The position numbers and the translations under genes were made by a program. Under the pieces are notes generated by a model. That model was not told the origin of the DNA and searched no databases. It was given only the letters and a program-made list of their open reading frames with translations. 64,000 nucleotides of DNA from Paraspadella gotoi (lineage: Eukaryota; Animalia; Chaetognatha): contig CM119263.1 of assembly GCA_051294375.1 (NCBI GenBank), positions 5,906,382-5,970,381 of the forward strand, written 5' to 3'. This document shows positions 6,816-50,512 of this stretch, piece after piece (position 1 is the stretch's first letter; each line of letters begins with the position of its first letter).

Positions 6816-7929
6816 TTAGGTGGCCGCTTCAACGATAACTTTGTACGGTTCTGGTGTCCTCACAAAATGTTTGATTCCCTTCATGTCTGGGAGTTTAGCT
6901 CCAGTTGGGAGGCGAAACTTGACGCGTTGGATAAACCTTAATAGAAAATTGATACATTATATAGAATAAATGATTTTACAATTATTAAACAAAAACGATT
7001 TAGGATTTGATTGCAACACAGTCTGAGTAACTCAAATTGCTGAATTAATTATTAAGACGATATCAAAAATTGCCATTTTACCGTAAAACCTACGTTTTCT
7101 AGCAATTTCTTACCAAAAGTATTTTAGAAATTCTCTGTTTTAATAACCTTTTCTTACCTTACAGTAAACAGAAACTGTTCCATTCTAGCAAGCTTTTCGC
7201 CCAAGCATCTCCTGTTCCCATAGCTAAAAGGAATAAGATTTTCGTTCGGTCTGAATCTCCCATTCGTGTCCAGATGTCTTTCCGGTTTAAACTTCATGGG
7301 TTCATCAAAGAGATTGGGGTCATGATGCACGGCCCAAATGTTGACGATTGTTAAGTCATCGCTGGTCAAATCGAATTCGCCAAATTGGCTCACGGGTTTG
7401 GCGCAACGTTTGGGCATCGAGAAATCCGCCACGCAAGATCTCCGAAAAACCTGTGGTACAGTAATATCATTAGTCGTAATATCTTTAATGCTTCTAACTA
7501 GGTTCTTAAGGTTTCCACAAGAATGACAGACCGATTTAACCTAGCACTCGTAACATACGAATAGAAAGAAATATAATACTAATGAATACGAGAGAATAGA
7601 ATAAAAAAAGAAAAAATAGAATAGATGAGAATAGAATACATTAGATTAGATACAGAATGGCCGGTTAACTTGACGGATTAGAAGCCCTGGAATGCAAAGA
7701 AACGGATCCGCGTACCAAACGTGTCTTTAAGGGCAAACCACACTCTTAGAATCGCACATGCACTTCATTAAGTCGTCATACCTCTTCCATGAAAGCGTGG
7801 AGGTAGTGGAGATCCTTCAACATCCCAAGACTTGGAACTCCGTCCTCTCCCACGATCTCTAACACTTCTCGTCTCAGCTTGTCGTACACCTGGAGATAAT
7901 ATATTACCAATCTGTAATTGCGAAGATCT

Positions 7930-7993
<64 letters not shown>

Positions 7994-9954
7994 CAAGAAA
8001 GAAAGAAAGGACTTACTTCGGGATGATGCAGCAGCCAAGCAATGGTCCAGTTGAGTGTGTGAGTCGTAGTGTCGGTTCCTGCAGCGAAAAGATCGAATGT
8101 GATGTGGAGGAAGTTGTCGAGCGAAAGATGCTCCGCATCCGGACGCTTTCGTCGCTCGGAGATGTAGGCGTCGATGAAGTCTCGATGTTCGTCGTCGTTG
8201 AAGGATTTCTCGTGATCCCTGAGCGTGTCCTTGATGTAAGAGATCACGTGATCTTTGGCGGCGATGATATTTTTGACTCTTTTCGTCTGAAAAAATCGAA
8301 GGAGACCAGGAAAGGCGGAGTAGACCGGATGTACGAAGAAGTAAATAACTGCGTATGTCATTGTCTGTAGTGAGCGATGTAGAGGCGAAGGTCGGCCTAT
8401 ATCGGCTCGTTGATCGAACAACAGCAAAGTGACGCTGTTGGAGATGGCCAGTTGGATGGGACCTTCAGCAGCAACAGCACCATCGAATGCCAAGAGCTCA
8501 TCGATGAGTCCATCAGCCTCGGCGAGGATTTTCTCTTCCATCTTTGCGCGACCGAATCCGAGGGCTAAAGGGGCAGTGGAATAATAGGGGCAGTGGAGTA
8601 ATATGGGCAGTGGAGTAAAAGGGGCAGAGGAGTAAAAGGGCAGTGGAGTAAAAGAGGCAGTGGACTAAAAGGGGCAGTGGAGTAAAAGGGGCAGTGGAGT
8701 AAAATGGGCGGTGGAGTAAAAGGGGCGGCGGAGTAAAATGGGCGGTGGAGTAAAAGGGGCGGTGGAGTAAAAGGGGCGGTGGAGTAAAAGGGGCAGTGGA
8801 GTAAAAATGGGCAGTGGAGTAAAAGGGTGACGATGAATCAAGATGGATTGTGGTGGTAAGTTGAATTACGATCAGTGGGTAAGGGAGAAAAGGTTTTTTT
8901 TGCTACAAATGCGTCATTATGAATAACACCTTAGAATTTTATACCGTAACTATTTAATATTTTTTTATTCCTACATACGTCACTTCCTATAACTTTATTA
9001 ATGACCAAAACAAGGTTTCGTTAAAGATTTGATTGAAAAATAACGAATAACTGTTAGAATTAACCCCCCCGCCCAAAAACAAAGGACCGAGGTGTGGTGC
9101 ACAAAATCAAAACTTGCCCGGCCAAACCCGAATCAAAACTTGCCCGACAAAGTGTTCATGACGAATTTGTGAGTCTCTTTCCAGGCCGGAGTCGAATCGG
9201 GCATCAAGAGTCCTTGACGTTTCGGGTTGAGAATCAAAATGTTTCCGTCTTTCGCTTTGGATCTTTTGGTGTTGAAGGAAAATAAAAAATCATTTGTAAG
9301 AGAGGGAAAATGCATCGATGTAATATAGATTTAAAGTTACGAGCTTTAAGATTAAAGATTTATGAATTGATTTGATTTTACGACGCTCAAAATGCGAATA
9401 AAACAATATAGTATATGCGAGTACATATTTGACATTTTGAATAAATGAATTAAACGTTAATAAGTAAACAGGTAAACAAGTAAATAGAAAAAAGTTACTT
9501 GTAGAATTTTGTATTGATTTGTTCTAAAAATGATTAATTAGTTGATTGATCGAGTTGATTATTACTTTATTGATAAAGTAATTTACGTAATGATTAATGA
9601 TTTGATTGATTGGTTGACCCACCTGTGCGCAAAGTCTTTGTTCGTCATAAAATCTTTTATCATTTTTATGTCATTAATAACGACGAAATTGACAGACGAT
9701 AATTTCTCAGCTGGAAAAAATCTAAAGACTTCGCCGACAGATTTCCTCCAACCATCGAACAGCATCGCCCAATCGTCGACGGGCACTTGGGCGTGGCCCG
9801 TGAGCCAATGCCCGCTCGGCGCACGGGGCACATCTCGCAGCCCCGATGGACGCCGCCGGCGCAGGGCCAAGTATACGAGGGTGACCAGCCCCAGCAACAG
9901 CAGGGTGCGTGGCAGAACATCGATGCTGGAGATGATATCGAATATGACGCTCAT
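6816..9954 (-). CDS. Cytochrome P450, clan 2 (CYP2-like), 6 exons, 506 aa
   Basis: Exons 9954-9623, 9262-9144, 8564-8017, 7889-7782, 7450-7158 and 6936-6816 sum to 1521 nt in consistent phase. Motifs: N-terminal TM anchor, 'LGFGRAKMEEKI', I-helix AGTDTT, K-helix EVFR (ExxR), PERH, heme motif FSYGNRRCLG. Intron 2 needs a GC donor. Confidence 0.95.
8568..8828. repeat. G-rich 17-bp minisatellite (GGGGCRGTGGAGTAAAA), about 15 copies, in CYP intron 2
   Basis: Direct tandem units are visible and abut the exon-3 acceptor. Confidence 0.9.
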
Positions 9955-10277
9955 CGTTGGAGAAAATAAAAAGAAGAAAAAATGAGGAGAGAAAAAGTTT
10001 TTTTTTTTTTGGTTGAACAAAAACGATGAGGGAAAGAATTCGAGTCTCTTATTTATCGAGAGGGAAACTCGACAAATATGGAGAGCGAGATAGAAACAGA
10101 AAGAGAGAGAGACAGAGACAGAGCGAAAATAGTTTGTCTTTTACTCAACTCAAAAGCTGAGCATTTTAAGGAAACTTTGTTTGTTCAGCTTCTTTTTTCT
10201 TTTTTTTCTCTTTCTTTTTTATCGTTTCTCTGTATTTTTTTCCCTCGCTCTTTTTCACGCTCGATTTTAACCAATTC

Positions 10278-10650: not shown

Positions 10651-13600
10651 CATCCCCACCAACCTTTGACCGGTGGGAGAAGGCTTGAAAAGGTTATTGG
10701 ATTGCGTCGTCGGTTTCGTCGTCGTCTCCGGCGGCTGAAGCATCGTCGGAAGGAGTTGATAAAACCCGGATTGATGAAGATTGTCGACGAGCAACTTGCG
10801 GCGTCGTGGAAACGCGAGTGGCGCCGCTTCCGTTTCTGGAGCGGGGCATAGATGGAGCTGCTGAGACGCGCGGGCGACATGTGGTCGCGCCTGCGGTGGA
10901 TCAGGGAGTGCAACTTCCGTTTCGTGGACGAGCTGCTGAAGCACGCAGGGCGACCACATGGTCGCGCCTGCGGTGGTTCAGGTGGTGCGACTTCGTCGGT
11001 GACGCAAGGTTTTCAGTCGATCAACCGGAGATCACTTGACGCCGCGGCCCGGTATTTCGATTTTGAAAGTTTTGGGACAGTTCGAGGACGTTGTAAGGGC
11101 CGTCGTAAGGTGGTTGGAGCGGCGTCGAATGTCCGTCGCGTCGGACGTAGACGCGGTCGGCGTCAGCGAGCATTTCCGGCACATGAGAGGGTGGCGCCGC
11201 ATGCCAAGCGGCGGGCAGAGGCTGCATGTGAGCAAACATCTGCACGGAGATTGTCGAGTTCGCGCGCGGGGCGGCGTCACGTCGTTGTTGGGACCGGAAG
11301 TAGCTCTCCAGGAGCGTCAGAGTCTGCCCAGCGTTAGCTCTGCGGGGAGGCGTCCGAATCTTCTCGCGGAGTTTGCGCGGAGGTCAAGAGAGTCCATGGA
11401 AGCTGCGCCAGCCAGTTATGTCCGGTGGCGTCGCAGTGGGCGCGCAGGGCTGTCTTTAGCGTCCGATGAAGGCGTCGACCATTTCCCGTTGGATTGGGGT
11501 GGTAGGGGTTGTCGTGAAGGGGTCGAAGCCAACTACCGCCGGCCACTTGGCGCCACAATTCCGATGTGATTGGGGCGCCACGATCGGTTGGTGACAACGG
11601 AGGGGACGCCAAAGCGAGAGACCCAGTTTTTTGCAAGAGGCGGCGGCGACGGAGGCGGCGAGGTGTCACGAAGTGGTGCCGCTTCCGGCCAGGTGCGTGA
11701 AGCGGTCAATCATCGTCAGAGATGAGTATGACCAGAGACGGCTGGCAGCGGTCCCACCAGGTCGATATGGACGTGAGCGAAACGTTTGGCTGGTGGTTCA
11801 ATTTCTGGAGCGGCGCGCGGACGTGGCGCTGCGTCTTGGCGCGCTGACAAGTGTCGCATGACGCTGGCCCATCGTGCGATGTCGGATGAGCTGATGGCCA
11901 TACGAAGCGCTCGTCACGAGCTTTTTAGGATGCCGCGAACTACGGATGAGCGATGCCATGGGTGGCGTCGAAAACGCGCCGGCGCCATGACGCTGGAACA
12001 AGTGGGCGTGCCCGGGAGCCGGAGACATCACAAATGAGTGTTCGTGTTGCTGATCGGGACAGTTTTGAGACGGAGCGCCGTATGAGGGTCGTTGAGGAGC
12101 CGCTGGACATCGTCATCAGGGCTTGATCAGCCCCCATTGCCTCGAGTTGACTTGGAGGGCGCCGATGGCGTTGACGGTGGCGGGCAATGTCCTCACGCTC
12201 CTTTCTGCGCGTTCGAGCTCGCTTCAGTCGATCTGACGTTGCGGTGCTGGCGGAGGAGCTGGCGGGCGAAGAGAGGGCGTCGGCGACGACGTTCGCCTTC
12301 CCGGCGATATGACGGATGTCGGCCGGTGTATTCGGCGATGCCCGCCAACTGGAGGTTTGCCTTCATGGGTGTAGGTTCTGCCTTCTTCCGCAGCGCCGGC
12401 ACAAGCGAGATGTGATCGCTGAAAGCGTGAAGCGGCGTCCTTACGACATAGGGCGAAATGGCGGATCGATGCATGAGCAGCGAGAAGCTCCTTGTCGAAT
12501 GGCGCCATTTGCGCTGGTTTGGTTCAGTGGTTTGGAGTGGAACCCAAGGGTTGCCACTGGCCTTCGACGAGCTGTTCGAGGACGGCGCCGACGGCGACGT
12601 CGGAGGCATCGACTGTCAGGGCGAGAGGGGCGCCGTCGATCGGATGGACCAGCATGTGGATCGGCGAGGGCGTCCTTGATTGCCTGGAAGGCGCGTCTTG
12701 CGGGCCGCCAGTTTTGCGGCGCGGTATTTCCGCGGAGAACTTCAAGGAGAGGTCGAGATGATGTGCAGCGTGGGGCACGAATCGGCGATAGTAGTTGAAA
12801 ACCCAAGGAAACGTTGAAGTTCTTTGACACTAGTGGGCGTGGCCATCTCGCGTAATGCCTCTACCTTCGACGGAAGAGGGCGGACGCCATCCTTGTCAAC
12901 GATGTAGCCCAGAAACTCCAGGCTCGGAGGAACCGAAAACGCATTTAGCCGGGTTGACGATAAGGCCGTTGTCGGCGAGCGCGTTGAAGACGCGCTTGAA
13001 GATCCTCTTGATGCTCTTCGTGTGATGAGATGCCACCAAGAAGTCATCTAAGTAAACGAAGACGTGGGGAATGGCCGCTTAGAACTTGGTCCATCATGCG
13101 TGTGGAAGTCCTGGCCGGCGTTTTTCAACCCAAACGGCATGAGAGAATCATAAAGGCGAACGGCGTGATGATCGCCGTTTTGTGGCGATCTTCTTTCGCG
13201 ACAGGGAATCTGGATGATATCCTTGCAAGTCGATCTCGAGAAGACTGTCTTCCCGCGACGTCGGCGTTGAAGTCCATGAGGTGACGGATCGGGTAACGAT
13301 CGTCGACGGTCAGTCGCCACATGGAACGAGAGAGCCATCTGGTTTTCGGGTGACATGTGTAGCGCGACGCCCACGCAGACGTGAGCGTCCGGATAATCCC
13401 GAGTTCCAGCATTCTCGAACTCGGCCTTGGCGGGCGGCGAGCTGATCGGGGGCGAGGCGGCCGGGTCGGGGCAAGACGGGCGGACCTTTCGTCGGTATGT
13501 GATGCTCGAGCCGTGCTTGGGTGGCGCCGAGTGAAGACGAGTTTCGTTAGTTCCGGTCGCCCGTCGAAAGTCCGGAAGTAGGCGTCGCGGACGTGCAGGA

Positions 13601-15656
13601 CGCGGGGCGGCGCAGCGGCGGCGGTCGTGAGCATGCAGTTATGACCATGTAGTCGTCGAGATCGAGAGTATTCGGCGTTGGTTGATCAACGCCGAGATGA
13701 TGCTCCATCAAAAAGTCGGCCGCCGAGAATGGGCGTGGCGACGTCGGCGATGATGACGAGAAGGAAAAACGCGTTTCCCAATCTAATCCTCATCTCTTGG
13801 ATGCCGAAATTTCGATGGGCGTGCGTTAGCGGCGCGGAGTGGCGGGGCGTTAGCGGCGGCGAGCGCCGCTTTGACGGCGGCTGGGTCGCCTTTGCGGCGG
13901 CGTGGTCCAGCGGCAGAGGCGGGGATGAGCGTCGCCTCTGAGCCCACCGTCGACGAGGCCACTCCAGGCAGCGTCAGGGTTCCGCGCACTAAGAATAGCT
14001 TCGAGTCGTTTCGCCAGCGACGCGGGCGACTAGCGGCCGCTCGGCGTTGCTTTGACGGCGCATTGGCAGGGCGGCCATCACGGTTCGTCCGTGGCACTTG
14101 AACGCGTTGGCGCCAAATTGTAGTGGTAGAATAGCACTTGGCTTCTCCCATGGCGGTTCGCGGTGTGGCGGGGAGCGGGCGTTAATGTTGGCGCCGTTGC
14201 TGCTGCGTGCGCTGCTGCGATGGGCCGCTGCTGTGATGGCGCTGCTGTGGGAACGGGGCGCTGCGTGAGCGTGGCGGCGGCCGTCGAACTGCGTTCGCGT
14301 AGGAGATGGCGGCGTCTCAGCGTTGCTGCCGATTCATCTAGAAGCTCCAGTGGCTCGTCCGCTGGGACCTCACTGAAAGTGACGGCGTCACCGAGGAGAA
14401 GCTGCGGGTCGAGCTGCGGAGCTGGCCTGAAGGAAGGAAGAATTCGTCGGCGTTTTGGTGATGTCGGCGGGTTTTTTATCCTTCCTGACAGCGTGTTCCT
14501 GACGCTTTGAGGGAGGAGGCAGCAAGAATGGCAGCTTGATGTGGTCCATGGTGAGACCTTCCAAGACGGCGTCGATAGCGGAGAGGTGCTGGGAAGGAGT
14601 GACGCCTTTCAGTGACGTCATCTCACGCCTTTGCGGCACGTCTGTTGGCGTCCTCACCATAGATTTTCTGCAAGTGGAGAATCAAATTTTTGTAAGTTTC
14701 AGGCCTTCGTCGATGCGGAGACCATGTGGGATTAGCCGGTGGCGGAGATGGGGATGCGCTGAGAATGAGCGCCTTCTTCTCCAGCCGGCTAAGTGACGCC
14801 AGTGGCGCCCGAATTCCACAGCGGCGTGGTCTAGCACTCCTCGATGTGGTCTGGTCGAAGGTCGTCAGCTTGGGATTTCTCCTTCTTGCTGTAGCGGCTG
14901 GAGGGCCGTTGAGAGGGTCGGGTTGCCTGTGGGGTGGCGTCGCTGCGCCGTCTTCCACCGATGGAGGCAACTCCGTTGAAGCGGTGCTTGCATCCGCTGA
15001 GGGAGGTTGGGTCTTTCCGTGACCGCGGCGAGTTTGCTGTTTGATCTCGAAGACCATTTGGAAAAGTCTCTCGATTTGCGATTCCGAGAGGCGTCGCGGA
15101 CGTCGAGGCGGCGGCGTCGTGGAATGCGTCGTCGGCGGCCGGCGCTGTCGGATGGGAGGCGTTGCGCGTGGTCACGGCATCGTCGTTTCTTCTTCGTCGC
15201 GGGCGTGGAGGGCGTGTGACGCTGGGTGATGAGAAACGCGGCATTAAGAAGAAAAAAAAAAATATTATTCCACTTTGAAAAAATTATTTCCTTGAAAAGA
15301 AATATATGATTTGCTTTTTAAAAAATATCCAATTTAAAAAATATTTGTTTTGAAGAGTTGTATTGGCAAAAAACGATTCGAATCGAGAGAATTTAGAGAA
15401 GGGGAAAAAAAAAGAATTTAGCAAAAAAACGCGTAAAAGTTTTCTTTCTGAGTAGATTTAAATTAAAAAATTAATTTAAAAAAATGGTTTTGGATTAAAA
15501 AATTGGTTCGGCGATAAACGCGCGGAGTTTGTTTCGTTTTTGTTGAGAAGTAGTTTTCCTTTTTGTTTAGTTTTTTTTTTTTTTGTTTTTTTTTTTTTTT
15601 TTTTTTTTGTTTCGTTTTGTTTCTTTTTTATATTTTTTTCGTTCGGGCTCACCACG

Positions 15657-21678: not shown

Positions 21679-24600
21679 ATGCCACTCTTCTCACTCAAGA
21701 ATCCCTTCGACGAAGCGGTGGAGGCGGCGACGCCAGCGGAAAATCCTGAAAATGAAGGAATTATCGTTTCTCGGTTTCTTCCCGTCGCCGATAAAATCGA
21801 CGCATGCGCACCAGGTCATTGTTGAGGTTCCCAGTTATTCTTGTAGATGTTTTTGTCCGGCGTCCTAGCTAAGTTTTGTTTATTTTTTTGTTTTCAAACA
21901 GTTTAAGTAAAATCAATAAAATTATCTAAATTTAACATGTAATATAGCGGTAATTACTTCAAAACTTTTATTTACAAAATTTTGAATGTCAACTATTTTT
22001 TGTAAAAGAAAGAGTCATAGTTTTTTGACAAGCATTAGTATTTCTACAAATGTTAGACAAGAAGAAAGTTTATTCCCAATTATTTCAATCAACAGTTTTG
22101 ATAAGGTCTGTTGTTGTCTCGATGCAGTCGTCCAATTTCTGCGCAGAATTCCAGCTGCTCTGCGTCGACAATGAAGCGGCGCTGAGTTGCGCGCGCGGCC
22201 AGCACTGTCGCTGGCAGATGCAGCTTCCCTTCCGCCTCCACCTGCTGCATTATATTAAGCGCGACTACAAAGAGGCCTGACTTGTGGCACCCATCGAGGC
22301 AGTGGACGAGCATTTTGGCGCGATTCTCTGGAAGAGTCAGCAAGAGGCGATTCACCTTTAGAAGGACCTCATAGAACCTCATGTGATCTGGCAGATGGTC
22401 GTCCTCGGGCCAACAATCGACGCTGATGTGCGTTAGATCAAAATCATCATTATCTTCCTTTGGACAGACTCTCATTGATCGCTTTGTCAGAATCTCATCA
22501 ATGCGATCCTTATTCAAACTTTCAACTTTCATCAACTTGAGCTTCTTTTTTGTTTGAGGCCAATAATCTGGAGCCCCGTCGGATCTGCAATTCAGTGCAA
22601 CGATGACTCCAAGTTGTTGCTCCATGACCAGAGTCCAAAAGTCGTCCACCGTGTTCTCTAAAGGCGCTTGAGTGACGATGCAACCGGCCTTCATTAAAAA
22701 TGTGTCAACGAATCCTGCATTGATGTATGTGTTGCCATCTGGAGGAATAAAGGTGGCGATATGCAACATGGAGTGGTCCTGGTAAAAAGGGCCATCTCTG
22801 TAGCGGTTCTTATCAGAATTCTCTGTCATCATTGAGAAAGAGGACTTGGTTACTGTGTGATCAGAAATCAATCCAAGACGATCAAAGAGCTCTGAAAACT
22901 CAGATTGACTCTGATGCCTGCCATTCTCATGTTTCAAGTTAGTCCCACAGTGAATTGCCAGTGCATTGTATACAAGTTTATATTGAGTAGACGTCTGCAC
23001 CATTTTAAACCTAAATTGTCGCATATGTCGAACAGTAGAGCTGACATTGACGACACCTAGGGATTCTGCTTCATCAAGCAAGTTCCAGATTGCAATACAA
23101 GTGCCGGTCCTACCAACGCCGGCGCTGCAATGAACAAGGATAGGAGAATGAGGTGGTTTGCAAGAGATTCTGGACGAGACGACGAATTGACGAACCACAT
23201 GAACAAATGAAGCTATTGTTGATGGTGTACGAGGAATGTCTTTGTCTGGCCATGAAATGAAATGGTACTGCATGACTCTTCGTGGAAGAGAGAGAGAACC
23301 ATCTTCGTTTTCCTTACAAATGTACATTTCACGGATGATATAATTAGAGCGATAGTTTTCATTCTCCAGCCTGACGGAGACACCGCCGAAAGAAAGAGAA
23401 CAGCCAATCCCCTTGGGCCAATATTGCTCACACTTTTTTTTGCCTTCCTCAATCAAGTTGGTAAGCATCACCAACACTTTCACATTCTGCTGCCAGATCA
23501 TCAACCAAAAATCGTCTACAGTTGAACGGCGTGGACCCTGACTGGCTATGAATGCTTTTTTTTCAAAGAAGCCAGGGATGTAATTCGCATTTATGTAGTC
23601 GGATGAAGAATTATCCGTCTTTTTGTCAGATAATTTGTCATTAATCTTGAGGTTGACATACATTTGATTGTCATCTCCACTATCAGAGTTTTCTTGATGG
23701 AGAATTACTCTCGAGTGATCATAGGCAGGGATATCCTGAAATCGATTTTTTCCCTTGTTCTCAGGACGGCTCGACACTTCATGTCCAAACTCAATTTTAT
23801 CTGGAATCGAAGAATATTCTTCTTTAAAATCTTTCGCACTTCTTTCTTCTCCATAAACAAGATTGAAGATATCCTTGACTGAAATGGATCCAACATCTGA
23901 GGCTTTGGCCCAAGTGGCACGCGGAGGGCGCGGCTGCGGGGGCACAACCGCCACTCCCTCGTTACGTGTCTTAGGCAGTGGCTTTTGCCGACCAGATTCT
24001 TCTCGTTGCATCGAAGTATTAAAGGCGATGTTGACGCTGCCCCGATTTTCGGCGGAGAAATTGACGGATTGCGTCGAGTTTCGAGAGATTTTTTTCGATC
24101 GACGGCGAAATAAAATAACAATAGTGATAATTACGGCTAAACAAATGACGAGAGACAAAGAGATGATAAATGGTACAACCCATTCTTGTGAAGAAGGAAC
24201 GCGATTGACTAATTTGTAAACCATCAGCGTTCTATTTTCTTGCATTCCATCCACTTCAGTTTCAATGATGAAACTAAGTTTGTAGGTTTTACTTCCTGAC
24301 AAACGGTTTCCCTCGCAACTTCCGTTTCTAACGATGCCATTCAAAATCTCCACCGGTTTTCCCAAATTTTCTTGTTTTGTGAAAACTGTGATAGGAACGT
24401 TACTGTTAACAGTTTTGCAAGCTGAGTTTGTAGATCTTCTGTGTCTCAAGTGTGTAGCATAATCCTTTTGGTCTTTATTATCTTCAAATGCAATTATGAG
24501 GATTTTTACGACATTTTTATCAGGCCAAGTGACAGGCGCTGGGATCAGACAAACTGCATCGATATCACAGATTATATCATCTTTAATAAATGAAGTTAAC

Positions 24601-27600
24601 GTTACATTTGGCGTTTCAATTTTACATGTTTTTCCAAAATATGAATTTCCACAGTGGCATGAATAATCACCACAAGAATTGGCACAACTCTTACCATTGT
24701 GACATGGATTGTTTTTGCATTCATCTATGTCAACACAAAATCCTGTTGATGTTTCCTTTTCTTTACAAATTTCGTCCGTAGTTAAATTCCAATTTAGCCA
24801 TTCAAAATCCTTTTTATTTTTTGAAATTTGTTGGCAGGTGATTATGTTTTTTACTTTGTTTGACATTTCGTATCCTTTTTTACATGATAAGTTGCACCGA
24901 GAATTATGGAAAGTTTTTTCTGTACAGTTCACATTCCCAATCCCTTTTTTGGTTGTTTTGCTGATAATTTCCGGAAGAGAGCAATTAACGGGATCGCATC
25001 TCGTGGGAGTAATTTCTTTCCACGAAGCCTGGTGATTTATTTTAGCTTGATGACAGTTGAAATTCCCGCCAATACGATAATAACCGGCTTTGCAATCAAT
25101 AGTACAATTTGAGTTGAACGAAGACGAACAGTCAGGATCTTCAGCATTCTTTACGGTGATTGGTTCATAGCAAGCGACTGCTTTACACTTTGGGTATGAG
25201 AAATAGCCCATTGGATTTTCTTCGTCTTCACCTTGTTTACAAACAGAAGTAAGGTTGTCAAAATCTGAAATCCATTGTCCTAACTTACATTCAAATAAGC
25301 ACGAATGTCTGTATTCATAACGGGTATCTGATTCACACGTTTTTAGCACAGTTGTTTGAGATATGTCTTTTTCCTTAATCTGACAATAAATCTTGTTGCA
25401 AGAGGCTAAATTGTTTTTCCAATTTGCATCTTGAGATTCACCTTTTTTTTCCTGTTCACAAAATCGATTCTTTGTGCCGTTTCTGTAAAAACCATCATCG
25501 CATGAGACAGAACAGTAGGTTCCAGCAACGATATGCCCTTTTGTGCAATTAGACTTAGTATTCTGTTTTTTATAGAGATTACAAACTGCTTGACCCAGGC
25601 AATCATTTCCATAATGGCCGTATTTACAAGTTGATGGGCAAACTCCTGAAAAGGTGTTGCACTTTTTTGCGCCAGAACAATTACATTCTAGCGTGCAATT
25701 TTTGCCATAATGTTCATTTTGGCAATTATTATCATTCTTGTCTAATTGTTTTAGAACCAAATCGTCAATGGAAATGCCATTTTCATGGATCGATATTTTA
25801 TGACTAGCTTTATCTGATATTAAAAATTCTTCATATTTTGACCAATTGTAACTTTTTGTCAGAGAAATACTTTGTTCATTGATGCCAATAAAAGTTGAAC
25901 TACGAGAAGAAAGGTAATAAAAGAAACTGAGCTGAGTATCAATTTTCGAATTTAAGTAAATGTCCCTTTGAACTTTATATTGGTTCGTTGCAAACTTTCC
26001 ATTGCAAGCAGTTAGACAGTATTCATAATAATTCTTCTTATTTGACGAGGGTTGGGCATCAGCAGTGCATCCCCCATTTTTTTTATCACAATAGCACCAA
26101 TCTCCCTTTTTATCATTATCAGTTAGCGTACATGAATTGCCCAAATATTTGTCTTTGCTCCACGGCAAACACTTAATAGATTTTCCTTTCGTATTAAAAT
26201 GTTCGTCTCTTAAGATACTTTCCGTTTTTTTGCATTTCTTTTCATAGTAGATGATAGGATACTTAATTGCTGTATAATCTGTTTTGGCGTTTTTATTTAT
26301 TCTAAAACCATAACACTTAAATTTTTTATCATTTTTTACACTTGCGAAGAAAGTTTCGCCCTGTTTAGTGTACAATGTGACTCTATCATTGATGCAGGTT
26401 TCATCTTTGGAACCAAACAGAAAGAAGGAGTTGTCTTTTCCTTCTGGTGCATAGTTTGAAAACTTGCTAGTATGTATATTAAAGGAGAATTTAGAGAGAG
26501 AAAATGGTTCATTGGCGCTGAACCAAATTGATTCGTTTGTCGCAATTTCTTTATTTTTCTTTGCGCACCAATAACCACCATCATAGAAAGCTTTTTTTGG
26601 AAGATACCCAGAGTCGTACACTGATGATGCCCCAACCGTTCCTTCGTTCTCAAAAAAGGGTTTATCCAATTTGACCTCCTCTTCCCCAATGGCCAACGTA
26701 TGATCTCCGATTGGCCCTTCCATCTTTGTCGACCCCACGCTTCCCCATCCGGTCTCGATGCTCCAACCAGAACCAAATTCCGTCTCATGAATTTTTGATG
26801 CTGCAGAATCAAAGTCGACTTTTGCTGCTTCGCAAGCAAACCGCAATTTAGAATTGCAATCAAATGTCTCCAAGCACAGTGTTGGGGAGGTCTTCTGCTT
26901 GACCCAAGCAACGCAATCGTGGTCTTTTCCTTGTGGTGAACGACACCAGGGAAGAGGAAGTTTAGTTGAGGAAAATCTGTCTTGGTTTTGATTCCACCAA
27001 AAGTTGACGTCTGATCCTCTTTTAAAAAATCCCGTCCAAACGCGGAGAGGATTTTCGATCCGTGAGTCGGGCGATCGACGTCGTCGGCGATTTGACTGTG
27101 ATTCCGGGATGGAAATTACATTCGGGTATTGGGTGGCATTTGCAGGGGATGGGAGAGAGAATTTTCCTTCGGGCGTTGAACCGACGAGATTAATTATAGC
27201 TTCGTTGCTTGGGATTGCTTGGTTTGCAAGCTCTTTGTAAATTGTGAAATTTGTGGCGTTTGTTATTTCAATATTCGTAATTGGAGCAAATGTGGAGGCG
27301 ACTGAGGCTGTGGTTGCATCGATTGTCGCTCTGACAGTGGTTGCTTCTCGGTTGGCGACTGAGGTCGTGGTAACAACATTTGTGGCTCCGGCAGTCGTGG
27401 CGTCTTGGTTGGAGACTGAGGTTGTGGTTGCAACGTTTGTAGCTCCGTAGTCTGTGGTGTCTTGGTTGGCGACTGAGGTTGTGGTTGCAACATTTGTGGC
27501 TCTGGCAGTTACGGCATCTTGGTGACTGAGTGTTGTGTGCAACATTTGTGGCTCCAACTGTCGTGGCGTCTTGGTTGGTGACTGAGGTTGTGGTTGCAAC

Positions 27601-28354
27601 GTTTGTAGCTTTGATGGTTGTGTTGTCTTGGTTGGCGACTGAGGTTGTGGTTGCAACATTTGTGGCTCCGGCAGTCATGGCGTCTTGGTTGGTGACTGAG
27701 GTTGTGGTTGCAACGTTGTAGGTCCGGTTGGTTTTGTGGTAAGTCGGCTTGGTTGGTGACTGAGGTTGTGGTTGCAACGTTTGTAGGTCCGGTGGTTGTG
27801 GTGTCTTGGTTGGTGACTGAGGTTGTGGTTGCAACGTTTGTAGCTCCGGTGGTTGTGGTGTGTTGGCTGGTGACTGAGGTTGTGGTTTTAACGTTTGTAG
27901 CTCCGGGGGTTGTGGCGTCTGTGTTGGCGATTCTGGTGACGGCAGAGGATTTAGTTTGGGTTTCAGCTGACGTCGGTTGCTGCAAAATTGTCTTCAATGT
28001 CGGAAGAAATGCTGAGTCACTCTCGCGATAGGATTCCTCTTGAGATCCTTGTCTCCCGAACAATGAAGACAATGGCGCGAGAACTGAAGCAACCTTTGGT
28101 TCTTGAAGGACAGAATCCTCAGTTGTCTTTGTCATCGACATCCCGAGTGCGTCGTCGTCCACGACGTCTTTGAGGCGTTCGATGGAGAATCGCGAAGACG
28201 CGAGTCTGACGCCAAATTTAGTCCAACATCTTTCAACCGATTGTCGCCAGTCGAGTCGCTCGTCCACGATGGTTAATGGAAGAATCTCAGGGCGAAGAGG
28301 AGAGAAGAAGAGAGGGAGAAGGAGGAAGATGGATAGGCAGCGCATGGTAGAGAG

Positions 28355-31700: not shown

Positions 31701-32814
31701 GGACTGTTCCCCGCCTCATTTGTGGAGGAGGAGGGGAAAGGGGGAGAGTAAGAGAGGGTGGGAGGGGAGGAAAACGTGAGAAGACTGAGGGGAAGGGAGA
31801 AAGGGGAAGGGGGAAAAAAGGAGGTGGTTGGAGGAAGGTGAAACGTTAGAGGGGAAGGAGAAGAGAAAGGGGGGGGAAGTAAGAGGGGAAGCGGAAGGGA
31901 ATAGATTTGAGAGGATAGTTAGAGGAGGATGGGATTATGAAAAAAAGGAACGAGAAATGAAGGGAAGAGGGAAGGAGAGAAAACATCCTCATGTTTTGAT
32001 TCTTCACCCGAGGAGGCGAAAACGTCGTTTTTCCGCTTTATTTCTTTCAAGAAAAAACGAGAAATTCACGAAGAAAGAGGAGGGAAAAAAAGAAAGAAAA
32101 GAAGAGAAGAAAAGAGAGGAAGAGAAGGAGAGAAAAGAGGAAAGGGAGGAATCTCCCTCGATGGTGGCGCCAGTTATCGACGAGGAAAAGATCAAGAGGG
32201 CGCTTCACCTCATTCAACACGTCGATCCTTCGCGAACGAAAGACGAGGATGAAGATCGAAAATTGGAAGAGTTGGAGGCGAGTTTATTGGAGGGGGGCGT
32301 GGGGGGGGGGAAGTGATCAGCTGGAGAGTCAATTGAATAGGGAAATTAGATTTTTAAAATGGTATCAAAATACAATTTTAATAAAGGTTATATTGAATAT
32401 CAAAATAGCTTTTGAAAGCAGGCAGTAGGGTTTTCTTAAATGATAGATATACCATTTTGTATTGTTCAGTGTTTAATGTACTTCCTTCTTCGTATTTTTT
32501 TCCCCCACCGCCAGACGGAATGCCTGGCCATGGGGCCCGAGATCGACGCTACGCTCGAGGCGACGGACAAGCGACATCTGGAGATCATGGATTTGAACAA
32601 ACGTCTGGCAGATGCATTACAGATGTATCACTTTCTCATGATCAGAGAGAAACAGGCGCAAGGTAAGGGGAGGAGGAAGAGGATGAGGAGGAATTGGAAG
32701 ATGACATAAATAATTGAATTAAAGATTTGTAAACTGAAATTAATTAACTAAAGATAGACATTTCTTCCTTAAGATGGCTCTCTGCCCGGAAATCCACAAT
32801 CGACATTTGGTTAG
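21679..32814 (+). CDS. STAM: STAM (signal transducing adaptor molecule, ESCRT-0): VHS-UIM-SH3-GAT/coiled coil, 10 exons, about 487 aa
   Basis: Exons 21679-21814, 29013-29089, 29904-30072, 30358-30484, 30788-30893, 31073-31298, 31540-31747, 32052-32277, 32515-32662 and 32774-32814 total 1464 nt in consistent phase. Motifs: MPLFSLKNPFDEAVEAAT, DCLRSVWKRV, UIM EKEELDRAIQASL, SH3 VRAIYDFEA...WWRG...GLFPASFV, GAT IDEEKI...CLAMGPEIDATLE. The last exon is least certain. Confidence 0.9.
22089..28345 (-). CDS. Intronless receptor-type protein tyrosine phosphatase (about 2085 aa, tandem D1/D2), nested antisense in STAM intron 1; two frameshifts in the repeat region
   Basis: ATG 28345 starts a signal peptide (MRCLSIFLLLPLFFSP). 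Three overlapping ORFs join across frameshifts near 27745 and 27535. TM helix at about 24108-24180. D1 has KNRF, DYINA, WPD, HCSAGVGRTG and QTSTQY. D2 has KNRY, WPE and HCLDGCHKSG. Ectodomain contains CTL, MAM, F5/8-like, kringle-like, EGF, 4 Sushi-like and cbEGF motifs. Confidence 0.92.
27290..27925 (-). repeat. Coding 45-bp tandem repeat (15-aa mucin-like unit ATNVATTTSVTNQDATT.G), about 12-14 copies
   Basis: Repeated GACTGAGGTTGTGGTTGCAAC at 45-bp period. Confidence 0.92.
28699..28766. repeat. (GATA)n microsatellite
   Basis: About 17 units. Confidence 0.9.
30540..30720 (-). mobile_element. Diverged interspersed repeat, possible Penelope-like 3' fragment; same family as 34650-35080
   Basis: Shares TATGAAATT..CCAATATAAAAA and GCAGGTCCYTGCAAG..CTCTCTCACAGTCT.GTTTATTCACT with 34650-34890. 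The minus strand reads ...NKLDCERDWIKDLQ, weakly like the 'E..WI..L' end of a GIY-YIG domain. Confidence 0.45.
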
Positions 32815-45349: not shown

Positions 45350-48300
45350 GTTTTCAATCGTAATCTTTCTAGTTAGCTAATATCTGTTTTGCTTATTTTT
45401 TTGTAACACAGAACCTTCTCGCTTAACTTCCCAAAACAGTATGTTCACCCGACGTACGGACGTCCCTCGGCGCCGTCTCTCATCTCACTCGCTCTCTCGT
45501 ATCTACTCTCTGCTCTCGTGCCTCTCTGCCCTCCCTCGTCTCTGCTCTCTCCTCTCTTCATCTAATTTATCGCCAGTCCGCCACTCATGGCGGTAATTTC
45601 GGGCTCTGTGCCATCGTTGCACAGACGCGAAAAAGCCGACTTGATTGCGGCGCACAGAATTCTTGGAGCACTCAACGCCAAACGCACAACCGGAAAACTC
45701 TGGTCTAAGCATCTGCACGCCGCGAACGGTCTCGTCACGCCCCGCATTTGGCCCTCACCGAAGAGAGGAGAGGAGCGCCCGGAGCGTCCGCAGTGACGAG
45801 AGACCCGACGCACGTGTCGCACCACACCAAGAGAGAGTCGAGACGAGCAAACGAGACCGAGGACGGAGACGACGAGACGCCGACGGTTAGGAAGCCCCCG
45901 GAAGACCGAAGAGAGAACGAGAGACCTGAAGAACGAATTATCCTACGAACGAAGATACAACTCAGAGTAGAAGCACACACTCTCACACACCAGATTCTCC
46001 TTTTCCTTCAATCTGAGTGACGCCTGCTCGTCTGCCGCCCCCACTGCACACGTGGATTTCCGCTTCCGAGCCCACAAACACAGAGACTAAACCTCTTTCG
46101 ATCTTTGTTGCCACAGTTGATCTTCCAAAATTACGCACCATCTTGTATCTCTAACATACCTGTCTCTTATTTCATCCCTCACTGATTAAGTCGTCCTCAC
46201 AGCACAACACCGCTGTCCACTCGTTCACAAATTCTACACATATAAACGCCAGAACATGCTGATCACCTGAACAACTCACCCCGTCCCTCACATCCACGAA
46301 TATGCACGCTAGTCAAATCACCGCACGTCTTAACCCAATCGCTACCCCGACTGCAAGCTGTGAACAGAGCCATTCCATCGAACAAAAGTACGACAAATCA
46401 AATACATCAAAAAAACAAGCGGAAAGCAAACATATCAAAGGTCTGGAAATCTCCCCCGTTTACTACGCCAATCGAACGCATTCAAGCACCTATCACGATA
46501 ATAAGACAGCAGACAACATGATCTTAAATCATCTGGCACACAGCAGAGCACAAGACACACAGAAGAACGGATTAACACGCCGATTTCACAAGTGGCGATC
46601 ACAGCGCTCTCGCCTACTTCAAGGATTCACGGATTTGAATTTAAGCCGCATTCTCACAGAATCACTTTTTAATAAAACAATTCTCTTCATCTTTTCACTT
46701 TTGCTTTCTTATAAACTACAGAACGGTGTCTCCAATGGGTTCATTCTCAAGGCCCCCCCCCCCCCCTCCCGCCCCCCCCCGCCCCACCCCCCCTCCCACC
46801 ACCCGACGACGCCCCCCCCCCCCCGCCCCCCCCCCCCCCCCCCCCCGACCGCCCCACCCCCCCCGACCCCCCCCGCCCCCCTCCCGCGCCGCCCCCGCCC
46901 CCCCGACCCCCCCCCCCCCCCCCCCCCCGCCACCGCCCGCCCGCCCCCCCGCTCCCCCCCGCCATCGCCCCCTCCACCCGCCCCCCACCCGCCCCCCCCC
47001 CCGACACGCCCGCGCAACGCCCCCGCACCCACCCCGCCACCTCCGCCCCCCCCCCGCCGCAGCCCCAGCGCCAGCACCCCCCGGAGGCGCGAGCCCCCAC
47101 CCCCCCCAGTTCTCCCCGACCACTCCCTCCGCCGAGCCGCGCCGCCGCCGCGCCGCAGCCCGCCCACTCTCGACGCCCGGCCGGCCCCACGTTCCCACGG
47201 AGCCCGCCCTCCGCCCGCCGCGGCCCAACGCCGACGGCGGCCGCCGAAGACCCGCGCGGGGAAACGTTCTGACTCTTGTCTTGCATTATACATGTAGATT
47301 TTGCTTTTCGAAATCTCACGTATTCTTCTTTTCCAAACTTTCCTTACCGTTCATCCTGCTTCAAATCGCTCTCCCTCTTTTTCCACGTTGTCTGTGAAAA
47401 CTGCCTAAACGGAAAAAAATGGCAATACAATGCTGATGATCTTCTCAATCAGAATACATCCACATACGCGCCCTCCTTTCTTTCGTCGTGCGTTCCGTCT
47501 CGCTGGTCCGTCGTTCCGTGTCCCTACCATCGAGAGCGTGAACAAACGAATGTTGTTTTGCGTCTTGAACGGCGAACATTTCTTCGTGTTCTCTGAGAAG
47601 TCAGGCATTTCCTTCTCGGTGGAGCGACGGAGGAGGAGGAGGAGGAGCAGATGGGGACAACAAGCGAGAAAAGGATGCAAAAACCCAACTGGATAACGAA
47701 GAAAGCAAAAGCAAAACGCGGTCATTTGGCCGGAAAAGTTTGATAAACATGCTGACAAGAACAACGAGGGAAAACATTGGCAAACATACGAGAGCCGGAG
47801 AAAAAAAAGCAACAATAGCAGATGGAGCCTTCGGGAAAATAGGAGAGGGAGTGGCAAATAGAGATGGAGTAGAATTGAGAGAGGGGGTGGAAATAGAGAG
47901 TGAGTGGAAAATTAAAGAGGAGTGGAAATTAGAGAGGGAGTGGAAAATAGGAAAGAGTATGAAAAATAGAGAGGGAGTGAGAATTAGAGAGGGAGTGGAA
48001 AATTAGAGAGGGTTGGGAAAAAAGTAAAAGAGATCGTGATTAAAAATAGAGAGGGGGTAGAAAATGGGAGAAAAAGGAGTGGCAAGATAGGCTTCAGACG
48101 AGCTGAGAACGAAAACATGACAGGCACGTGGAAACACGGTAACTACGGAGATGTGAAAAATGGAGGCGAGGTGCGAAAAACAGAAGGGGAGTGGAAAAGA
48201 AAAAACAAAGAAAAAAGCTAAAAGAGAGCAGAACACAACAAAGTGGATTAGGCCCGAGGGAAAGAAGAGAAAAGGACAATGGACAAAGAAAACAGAGGAA

Positions 48301-50487: not shown

Positions 50488-50512
50488 NNNNNNNNNNNNN
50501 NNNNNNNNNNNN
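50488..50512. other. Assembly gap (25 N)
   Basis: Run of 25 n. Confidence 1.

Follow-up and report, generated by a model that had tools for sequence, protein, structure and literature searches.

C-type lectin (CTL) domains are treated as compact units, in which the cysteine of helix alpha1 is bonded to the final cysteine of the domain. In unrelated host folds, the insulin receptor insert domain and the mucin-like domain of filovirus glycoprotein (GP) each contain a disordered segment that bears glycans and a furin site, and end as two disulfide-linked chains, and the Notch heterodimerization domain has an SEA-like fold. Here we describe a lectin-like domain that is split by an insert of about 369 codons, with a likeness to the insulin receptor and GP in design only. 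It is encoded on the minus strand of a 64,000-nucleotide stretch of the genome of the chaetognath Paraspadella gotoi (assembly GCA_051294375.1, contig CM119263.1, positions 5,906,382 to 5,970,381; this whole stretch is called the window, and coordinates refer to it). The gene would encode, as one open reading frame (ORF) of about 2100 residues ending at 22089, an intronless receptor-type protein tyrosine phosphatase (RPTP). Our interpretation, to which we give a probability of about 0.55, is that the insert sits in the alpha2-beta2 loop of a CTL-like domain of this RPTP, that the two halves fold together, and that a cut at a run of five arginines (RRRRR) would produce a two-chain domain carrying an O-glycosylated arm.

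The closest described systems each share part of this design. In RPTPs of the LAR type (R2A), cleavage at a penta-arginine yields two subunits that remain associated (PMC8711739). Like LAR-type and other tandem RPTPs, the protein described here is a type I membrane protein with an intact first phosphatase domain (D1) and a degenerate second one (D2). Unlike the LAR type, it has an ectodomain of CTL-like, F5/8-like, kringle-like, EGF and sushi modules and not of Ig and FN3 domains, and its penta-arginine lies inside a domain at the distal tip, where the predicted link between the chains is a disulfide. In Notch, the furin S1 site lies in a disordered loop within one domain, as the predicted site does here, and the cut two-chain domain is barely changed; in contrast to our locus, the Notch subunits are held non-covalently and the accessible part of the source reports no tandem mucin array (PMC2726630). 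Among phosphatases, the glycosylated, mucin-like N-terminal region of CD45 acts by size exclusion, and R3 phosphatases project disordered loops of 44-108 residues from their FN3 domains (accessible part of PMC10815196). Unlike the insert, the CD45 mucin is terminal and varied by splicing, and the R3 loops are shorter, with neither repeats nor cleavage reported in that part of the text. The window protein is a variant of known cleaved-receptor designs; furin-site loops inside domains and mucins on phosphatases are each known. An earlier note on this DNA, made from its letters alone, stated that no example had been described. For CTLs this holds in the literature searched, seen in part and including few subscription papers, which turned up no CTL interrupted either by a mucin or at the alpha2-beta2 loop; the same logic is nevertheless present in Notch and partly in other RPTPs. 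A domain-insertion survey of 2026 contained no C-type lectin passage in its main text and no matches in three of its supplements (PMC13114784).

The evidence for the split comes from an unbroken homologue. Directly after a hydrophobic N-terminus beginning at the ATG at 28345, the protein carries IVDERLDWRQSVERCWTKFGVRLAS, in which the earlier note had read the beta1-alpha1 motif of a CTL. The segment from VWTG to FACE, taken by the note as the rest of the fold, is present and lies in the large downstream ORF. The end of the N-terminal half (N-half, 28154) and beta2 at the beginning of the C-terminal half (C-half, 27047) are 1106 nt apart, or about 369 codons, close to the 380 residues claimed. 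A search with the C-half and the sequence following it against 1.84 billion representatives returned 23 matches and yielded the insert-free homologue that the note had asked for: P0124, which comes from an ENA assembly, starts with a leader and continues in an unbroken domain with both halves contiguous. Residues 21-65 of P0124 pair with the N-half in an ungapped alignment (16/45 identical, 36%; pairwise E 4e-8), and the C-half aligns from residue 70 (33-34% identity). Since the first alignment ends at residue 65 and the second begins at residue 70, the insert replaces the four-residue alpha2-beta2 loop. In the reverse direction, the N-half is the sole significant match of the P0124 21-65 segment in the window (E 2e-8; next best 3.4). 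All six cysteines, one of the N-half and five of the C-half, are matched in P0124, the alpha1 and the final cysteine among them, and the readable insert contains none. The whole N-half is matched only by P0124 and its near-identical twin P0146 among 24 proteins (the 23 matches and one cluster member); the krill protein P0123 matches 13 of its residues, and the remaining C-half matches start at or after beta2. After the CTL-like domain and a conserved linker, P0124 diverges and ends at 334 amino acids, and no membrane helix can be made out by eye; perhaps this family member is secreted or degenerate.

The domain is probably a divergent CTL. In the usual CTL motif names, it shares with PF00059 the W-x-x-[AS]-x-x-x-C helix, the L-A-S strand, WTG in place of WIGL (within VWTG), and, at aligned positions, the cysteines of the two canonical pairs, namely Cys40 of the N-terminal ORF and Cys254, Cys273 and Cys281 of the downstream ORF. 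It departs from CTL domains in the interruption of about 369 residues at alpha2-beta2, in two extra conserved cysteines, in lacking EPN/QPD and WND, and in scoring below the curated cut-off. The C-half covers positions 41-106 of the 107 of Lectin_C, and in the ESM Atlas (score 0.93) Lectin_C appeared in 23 of its 30 matches; the corresponding score of 0.88 for P0124 is a lead only. The N-half alone has no Pfam match. It nonetheless contributes: upon deletion of the insert, which the earlier note had proposed for Pfam and AlphaFold, the joined halves scored 18.8 bits on a profile of two intact krill CTLs, compared with 2.3 and 8.3 bits apart, so that addition of the N-half lifts the score from 8.3 to 18.8. 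This value was reached by none of 500 controls with a shuffled N-half (best 16.9) and by none of 167 controls with other segments (best 13.1).

Modelling of the two halves as separate chains gave a score of 0.37, against 0.07 for the best of three controls, with at least 74% of contacts shared between runs and a partner pLDDT (predicted local distance difference test) of at least 56. Of the solved pairs, 51 of 78 reached the pass mark used, and of the mismatched ones 2 of 108. Passing scores of 0.60 or lower came from only 5 of the 78 solved pairs, yet from all four mismatches that passed among 180; moreover, halves belonging to a known fold may pass because they resemble solved structures. 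The model thus hints, weakly, that the halves may refold around the insert. Of the looped-out architecture that the earlier note had put forward, the split CTL-like domain and the cysteine-free, threonine-rich insert stand, whereas two-chain folding is the part on which this weak score bears. The calcium-site motifs EPN/QPD and WND are absent, the aligned stretches reading SPQ and LETFD, and calcium-dependent sugar binding is therefore unlikely. The domain is probably a scaffold or protein-binding module and not a calcium-dependent sugar binder; as a name for its function, 'lectin' is doubtful.

The insert consists of a unique spacer, a tandem array and a second unique spacer (Table 1). The repeat had been described as a 15-mer, but the unit is 57 bp, or 19 amino acids, in about 11 copies, and 7 of the 10 delimited units have exactly this length. 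Threonine makes up 29-43% of the units, with little proline, as in mucin-type tandem Thr/Ser-rich repeats, and this composition suggests dense O-glycosylation. The earlier note had let the mucin stalk fill the insert; a threonine-rich array is present, but it makes up no more than about 210 of the 369 residues, and the two spacers supply the others. Both spacers are stop-free in the coding frame, whereas the other two frames hold 2 and 4 stops in the first spacer and 3 and 2 in the second.

The polybasic site was correctly placed after the array. RRRRR is the only furin-like site in the readable insert and lies 9 residues before beta2; no R-x-K/R-R is present in the N-terminal ORF, that is, before the array. 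Its five arginines make two overlapping R-x-R-R matches in a stretch predicted to be disordered, and the only other furin-like motif of the ectodomain is RHRR (24446). The motif makes RRRRR a candidate for furin-type cleavage, which would leave a disulfide-linked two-chain domain. The halves might instead fold together with RRRRR uncut, the mucin then forming a closed loop on a single-chain domain in the manner of the FN3 loops of R3 phosphatases. Such loops of 44-108 residues occur in CD148, GLEPP-1 and PTPRQ (accessible part of PMC10815196), nearby glycans could mask RRRRR, and RHRR near the membrane could be the site used instead. Given the two overlapping matches in predicted disorder, and the fact that penta-arginine is cut in LAR-type RPTPs (PMC8711739), we regard an uncut loop as rather unlikely.

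Another possibility is that the ORF is continuous and the insert has broken the fold, the N-half being a relic or pro-piece that is shed together with the mucin as a secreted fragment upon cleavage at RRRRR. The great divergence of the domain, its lack of sugar-binding motifs and the weak two-chain model are consistent with this, and a site 9 residues before beta2 resembles a pro-domain boundary. Against this, Cys40 and the final cysteine are both kept, and the N-half (36% identity) is as close to P0124 as the C-half (33-34%), suggesting similar constraint. From general CTL anatomy, a C-half deprived of beta1, alpha1 and alpha2 would have lost half of its core and would be left with an unpaired cysteine. 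We consider a shed pro-piece unlikely.

If, as we favour, the halves fold together and RRRRR is cut, a single continuous ORF would be translated as a signal peptide and receptor, the two halves would close around a cysteine-free, threonine-rich loop of about 370 residues, and Cys40 would pair with the final cysteine of FACE. A furin-type cut after RRRRR would then leave two disulfide-linked chains. With the array upstream of the cut, the N-terminal chain would retain the arm, and a closed loop would become a free-ended tentacle. Most likely the arm would serve as a steric spacer or shield at the receptor tip, like the mucin region of CD45, and it could limit ligand access, receptor pairing or entry into tight cell contacts, thereby tuning phosphatase output. 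Such retention is easier to reconcile with a spacer or shield than with a switch that cleavage takes away. The activation switch suggested in the earlier note is accordingly weakened, because the only furin-like site follows the array and a cut there frees one end of the arm and does not remove it.

A number of observations weigh against our interpretation. As for the fold, the C-half scores 19 bits (E 0.0025) against Pfam Lectin_C, where the gathering cut-off is 22.6; P0124 has no Pfam match and only 9.9 bits on the krill CTL profile, and PDB searches with P0124 and with family-only profiles turned up no CTL. AlphaFold models of P0124 were poor, with mean pLDDT of 33 (single-sequence) and 37. 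For the second model CTLs were all of the listed Foldseek matches and the top 32 VIA rows, but these structural matches had E of 0.007 or worse and Z of at most 4.1, and the input alignment already held a true CTL. (PDB matches to CTLs obtained with alignment A5 were set aside as circular, since A5 contains a krill CTL.) As for the family, there is a single unbroken homologue cluster, of two near-identical members, among the 23 matches, and no second inserted copy among them; the direction of the change, a gain of the insert, therefore rests on the general CTL fold. As for the reading frame, the halves are not in one frame as assembled, contrary to the earlier note: units of 64, 56 and 53 bp (3 of the 10 delimited) break the frame, and the net shift is not restored. 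The stretch 27444-27814 is spanned by neither flanking contig of the sequencing runs examined, agreement covers the flanks only, and the copy number is approximate. The array may be polymorphic in length, but no evidence for this was obtained from run contigs that leave this stretch unspanned. Finally, runs X2 and X3 are identical in contigs and depths, and may be one data set and the source of the assembly.

The mid-array frame breaks are nevertheless likely to be assembly errors, because they are small and scattered, and because the contigs match on either side, the contig ends are spaced by whole units, both ORFs meet the array in its threonine-rich frame and both spacers are open. The breaks are eight indels of 1-4 bp in three units, all within about 290 bp. 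Contigs of all four runs match 22000-27290 without difference, and on the spacer side (27931-28345) those of 2/4 runs are identical; runs X6 and X7 have no contig there, an absence that can be false. The two flanking contigs end at the same repeated 30-mer; its copies lie 401 bp from each other, and seven whole units would make 399. The N-terminal and the downstream ORF both enter the array in the Thr-rich frame, and the rough chance that both spacers would be open only in the frame needed is 0.002. Downstream of the last break about 1800 codons are open. The best runs contain 0.95 of the gene's words, a value that falls between the loss of 1.7% expected for the indels alone and that of 6.4% if no mid-array word were indexed, and that favours neither reading of the frame. 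The identity of 22000-27290 among contigs of four runs from three studies suggests that the source was clonal or inbred. Elsewhere in the window, a noisy poly-C tract (46753-47066) and a 25-base N run (50488-50512) point to local problems of assembly.

Were the breaks real, the locus would be a recent null allele or a young pseudogene, making only a 278-residue secreted fragment and no receptor. In the assembly three units are indeed off-length and leave a net shift, slippage is a source of mutation in tandem arrays, and an intronless gene could be a retrocopy. Slippage, however, normally alters whole units, whereas here eight separate 1-4 bp indels crowd into about 290 bp and none falls in the 5.3 kb of contig-confirmed flank. 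The related protein P0147 moreover keeps the same long open architecture, and the window has other assembly blemishes. We consider loss of the gene improbable. Less probable still is an intron that takes up the insert wholly or partly, so that the domain in the mRNA would be normal or less interrupted. There are 338 GT..AG pairs that could join the frames, and certain combinations, for example donor 28020 paired with an acceptor in the array, would eliminate the breaks. Excision of the insert as a whole, however, is achieved by only 2 of the 338, each with a poor donor and each at the cost of beta2 (VWTG). A clear polypyrimidine tract was seen at no acceptor, both spacers are open in the coding frame only, and the remainder of the gene is intron-free.

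The protein context of the domain goes beyond the earlier note, as the domain caps a tandem-phosphatase receptor of about 2100 residues. Stop to stop, the large ORF runs for 1861 codons on the minus strand, from 27674 down to 22089, with no intron, and carries two PTP domains (Pfam E 3e-113) preceded by a transmembrane helix. The split domain forms the N-terminal tip, at the 5' end of the gene, and the single transmembrane helix followed by D1 and D2 marks the product as a receptor-type phosphatase. In D1 the catalytic motifs WPD, HCSAGVGRTG and QTSTQY are intact, with KNRF where KNRY is expected; D2 is degenerate (HCLDGCHKSG). No Ig or FN3 match to Pfam was found in the ectodomain, which sets it apart from the LAR (R2A) class. 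Consistently, in a 22-row tree of D1 from the window and 21 of the 120 PTP matches listed (P0147 not included), the window D1 fell outside the supported LAR-like group and had no supported placement. The 120 matches listed are generic RPTPs of 26-38% identity, and none contains a Lectin_C domain. Sea-urchin receptor phosphatases called PTPRLec reportedly also combine CTL and tandem PTP domains. No paralogue of the gene lies within the window.

Within the ectodomain, the F5/8-like region has no direct Pfam match and is recognised by its alignment to regions of P0123, P0133 and P0135 that match F5_F8_type_C. The order of EGF-like and sushi-like repeats is the same in P0147, and RHRR sits in the membrane-proximal region, the usual place of RPTP processing. 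A 259-codon stop-free frame on the same strand (26336-27115) overlaps the C-half; it is probably incidental, and the part of it that was tested had no Pfam or meaningful PDB match.

Table 1. Layout of the receptor phosphatase gene in the window (positions count from the first base of the window)
Feature	Position	Strand	Basis or remark
Predicted signal peptide with start codon (roughly residues 1-19)	28289..28345	-	ATG in ACCATG context; hydropathy 2.0-2.9 over first windows
N-half of CTL-like domain: beta1, alpha1 (Cys40 at 28228-28226), beta1', alpha2	28154..28288	-	P0124 alignment
Insert part 1: unique Ser/Thr-rich, Cys-free spacer, about 74 codons	27931..28153	-	Open in coding frame
Insert part 2: mucin-like tandem array, about 11 x 57 bp, 19-residue Thr-rich unit	27297..27930	-	Tandem Repeats Finder (TRF) score 660
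Mid-array zone with three off-length units (64, 56, 53 bp)	27478..27764	-	Inside 27444-27814
Insert part 3: unique spacer, about 83 codons, three N-glycosylation sequons and penta-arginine	27048..27296	-	Sequence
RRRRR, predicted furin-type cleavage site	27075..27089	-	Sequence
C-half of CTL-like domain, beta2 VWTG to FACE, five Cys	26829..27047	-	Pfam Lectin_C, ESM Atlas, P0124
Family-conserved linker and F5/8 (discoidin)-like domain	26250..26828	-	Via homologues; approximate boundaries
Cys-rich module, weakly kringle-like	26004..26234	-	Homologue P0127: Kringle E 0.0048, under cut-off; no direct match
EGF-like, sushi-like repeats and calcium-binding EGF-like domain	24636..25724	-	Sub-threshold Pfam Sushi, EGF_CA, EGF
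RHRR, second furin-like site, about 90 residues before membrane	24435..24446	-	P0147 has GRRS at aligned place
Transmembrane helix	24111..24167	-	Most hydrophobic 19-residue window
PTP domain D1	22959..23759	-	Pfam Y_phosphatase E 3e-113, two stretches
PTP domain D2 and stop codon	22089..22820	-	Pfam; AATAAA at 22074 after stop

Elsewhere in the window, a cytochrome P450 gene lies on the minus strand at 7768-10140, broken into several pieces, one of which matches Pfam p450 at E 5e-24; the phosphatase gene, by comparison, is intronless. The GC-rich region at about 11000-15170, with broken frames, has by eye the look of a decayed retroelement, and two frames tested there had no Pfam match. A short coding-looking piece on the plus strand (about 32119-32316), also lacking a Pfam match, resembles STAM-like adaptors.

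Few relatives of the receptor are on record. For the ectodomain, word-based searches for homologues came back empty at 1023-3257 amino acids and, with alignment A5, gave only P0124 itself; JGI metagenomes and viral contigs held no related loci. The best named relatives of the ectodomain are krill proteins. P0147, 1292 amino acids on a 4214-bp ENA contig that lacks the N-terminus and hence the CTL region, has the F5/8-like domain, Cys-rich module, EGF, sushi-like, EGF, membrane segment, D1 and D2 in the order of the window gene. From this shared architecture we infer a receptor phosphatase family with few records. P0147 is apparently intron-free, if its contig is genomic.

A second split domain was found in the krill protein P0123 (CAL4114092.1), whose third CTL, at residues of about 1068-1712, is interrupted at the same alpha2-beta2 loop by 442 residues consisting of three F5/8-like repeats. 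After beta2 it is split again by 85 residues, PAN/apple-like by eye. Scored against the intact CTLs of the same protein, the parts gave 29.7 and 33.8 bits apart and 79.0 bits joined with the beta2 piece. In at least one further protein, then, the alpha2-beta2 loop accommodates large inserts. Unlike the window insert, those of P0123 are folded modules, with no furin site noted and no membrane or phosphatase part, and P0123 is an unannotated database protein. As a tentative extension, which we think has a minority chance of being right, the alpha2-beta2 loop of CTL-like domains may be an unrecognised insertion hotspot in marine invertebrates, receiving either folded domains, as in krill, or tandem-repeat mucin with a furin site. 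The RPTPs capped here with a two-chain domain may then form an undescribed intronless family, in which repeat number would determine how long the tethered glycan arm is and thereby tune signalling.

Because CTLs are viewed as compact units, Pfam overlooks a domain whose halves lie hundreds of residues apart; in this case it picked up the C-half alone, and below the cut-off. The two independent splits at alpha2-beta2 suggest that similar domains are absent from counts of CTLs and annotations of receptors in invertebrates. Should the protein be made in the predicted form, a glycan arm of variable length would have been hung on the tip of a receptor without loss of the fold that carries it, and the number of repeats would provide a clean test of steric regulation of RPTPs.

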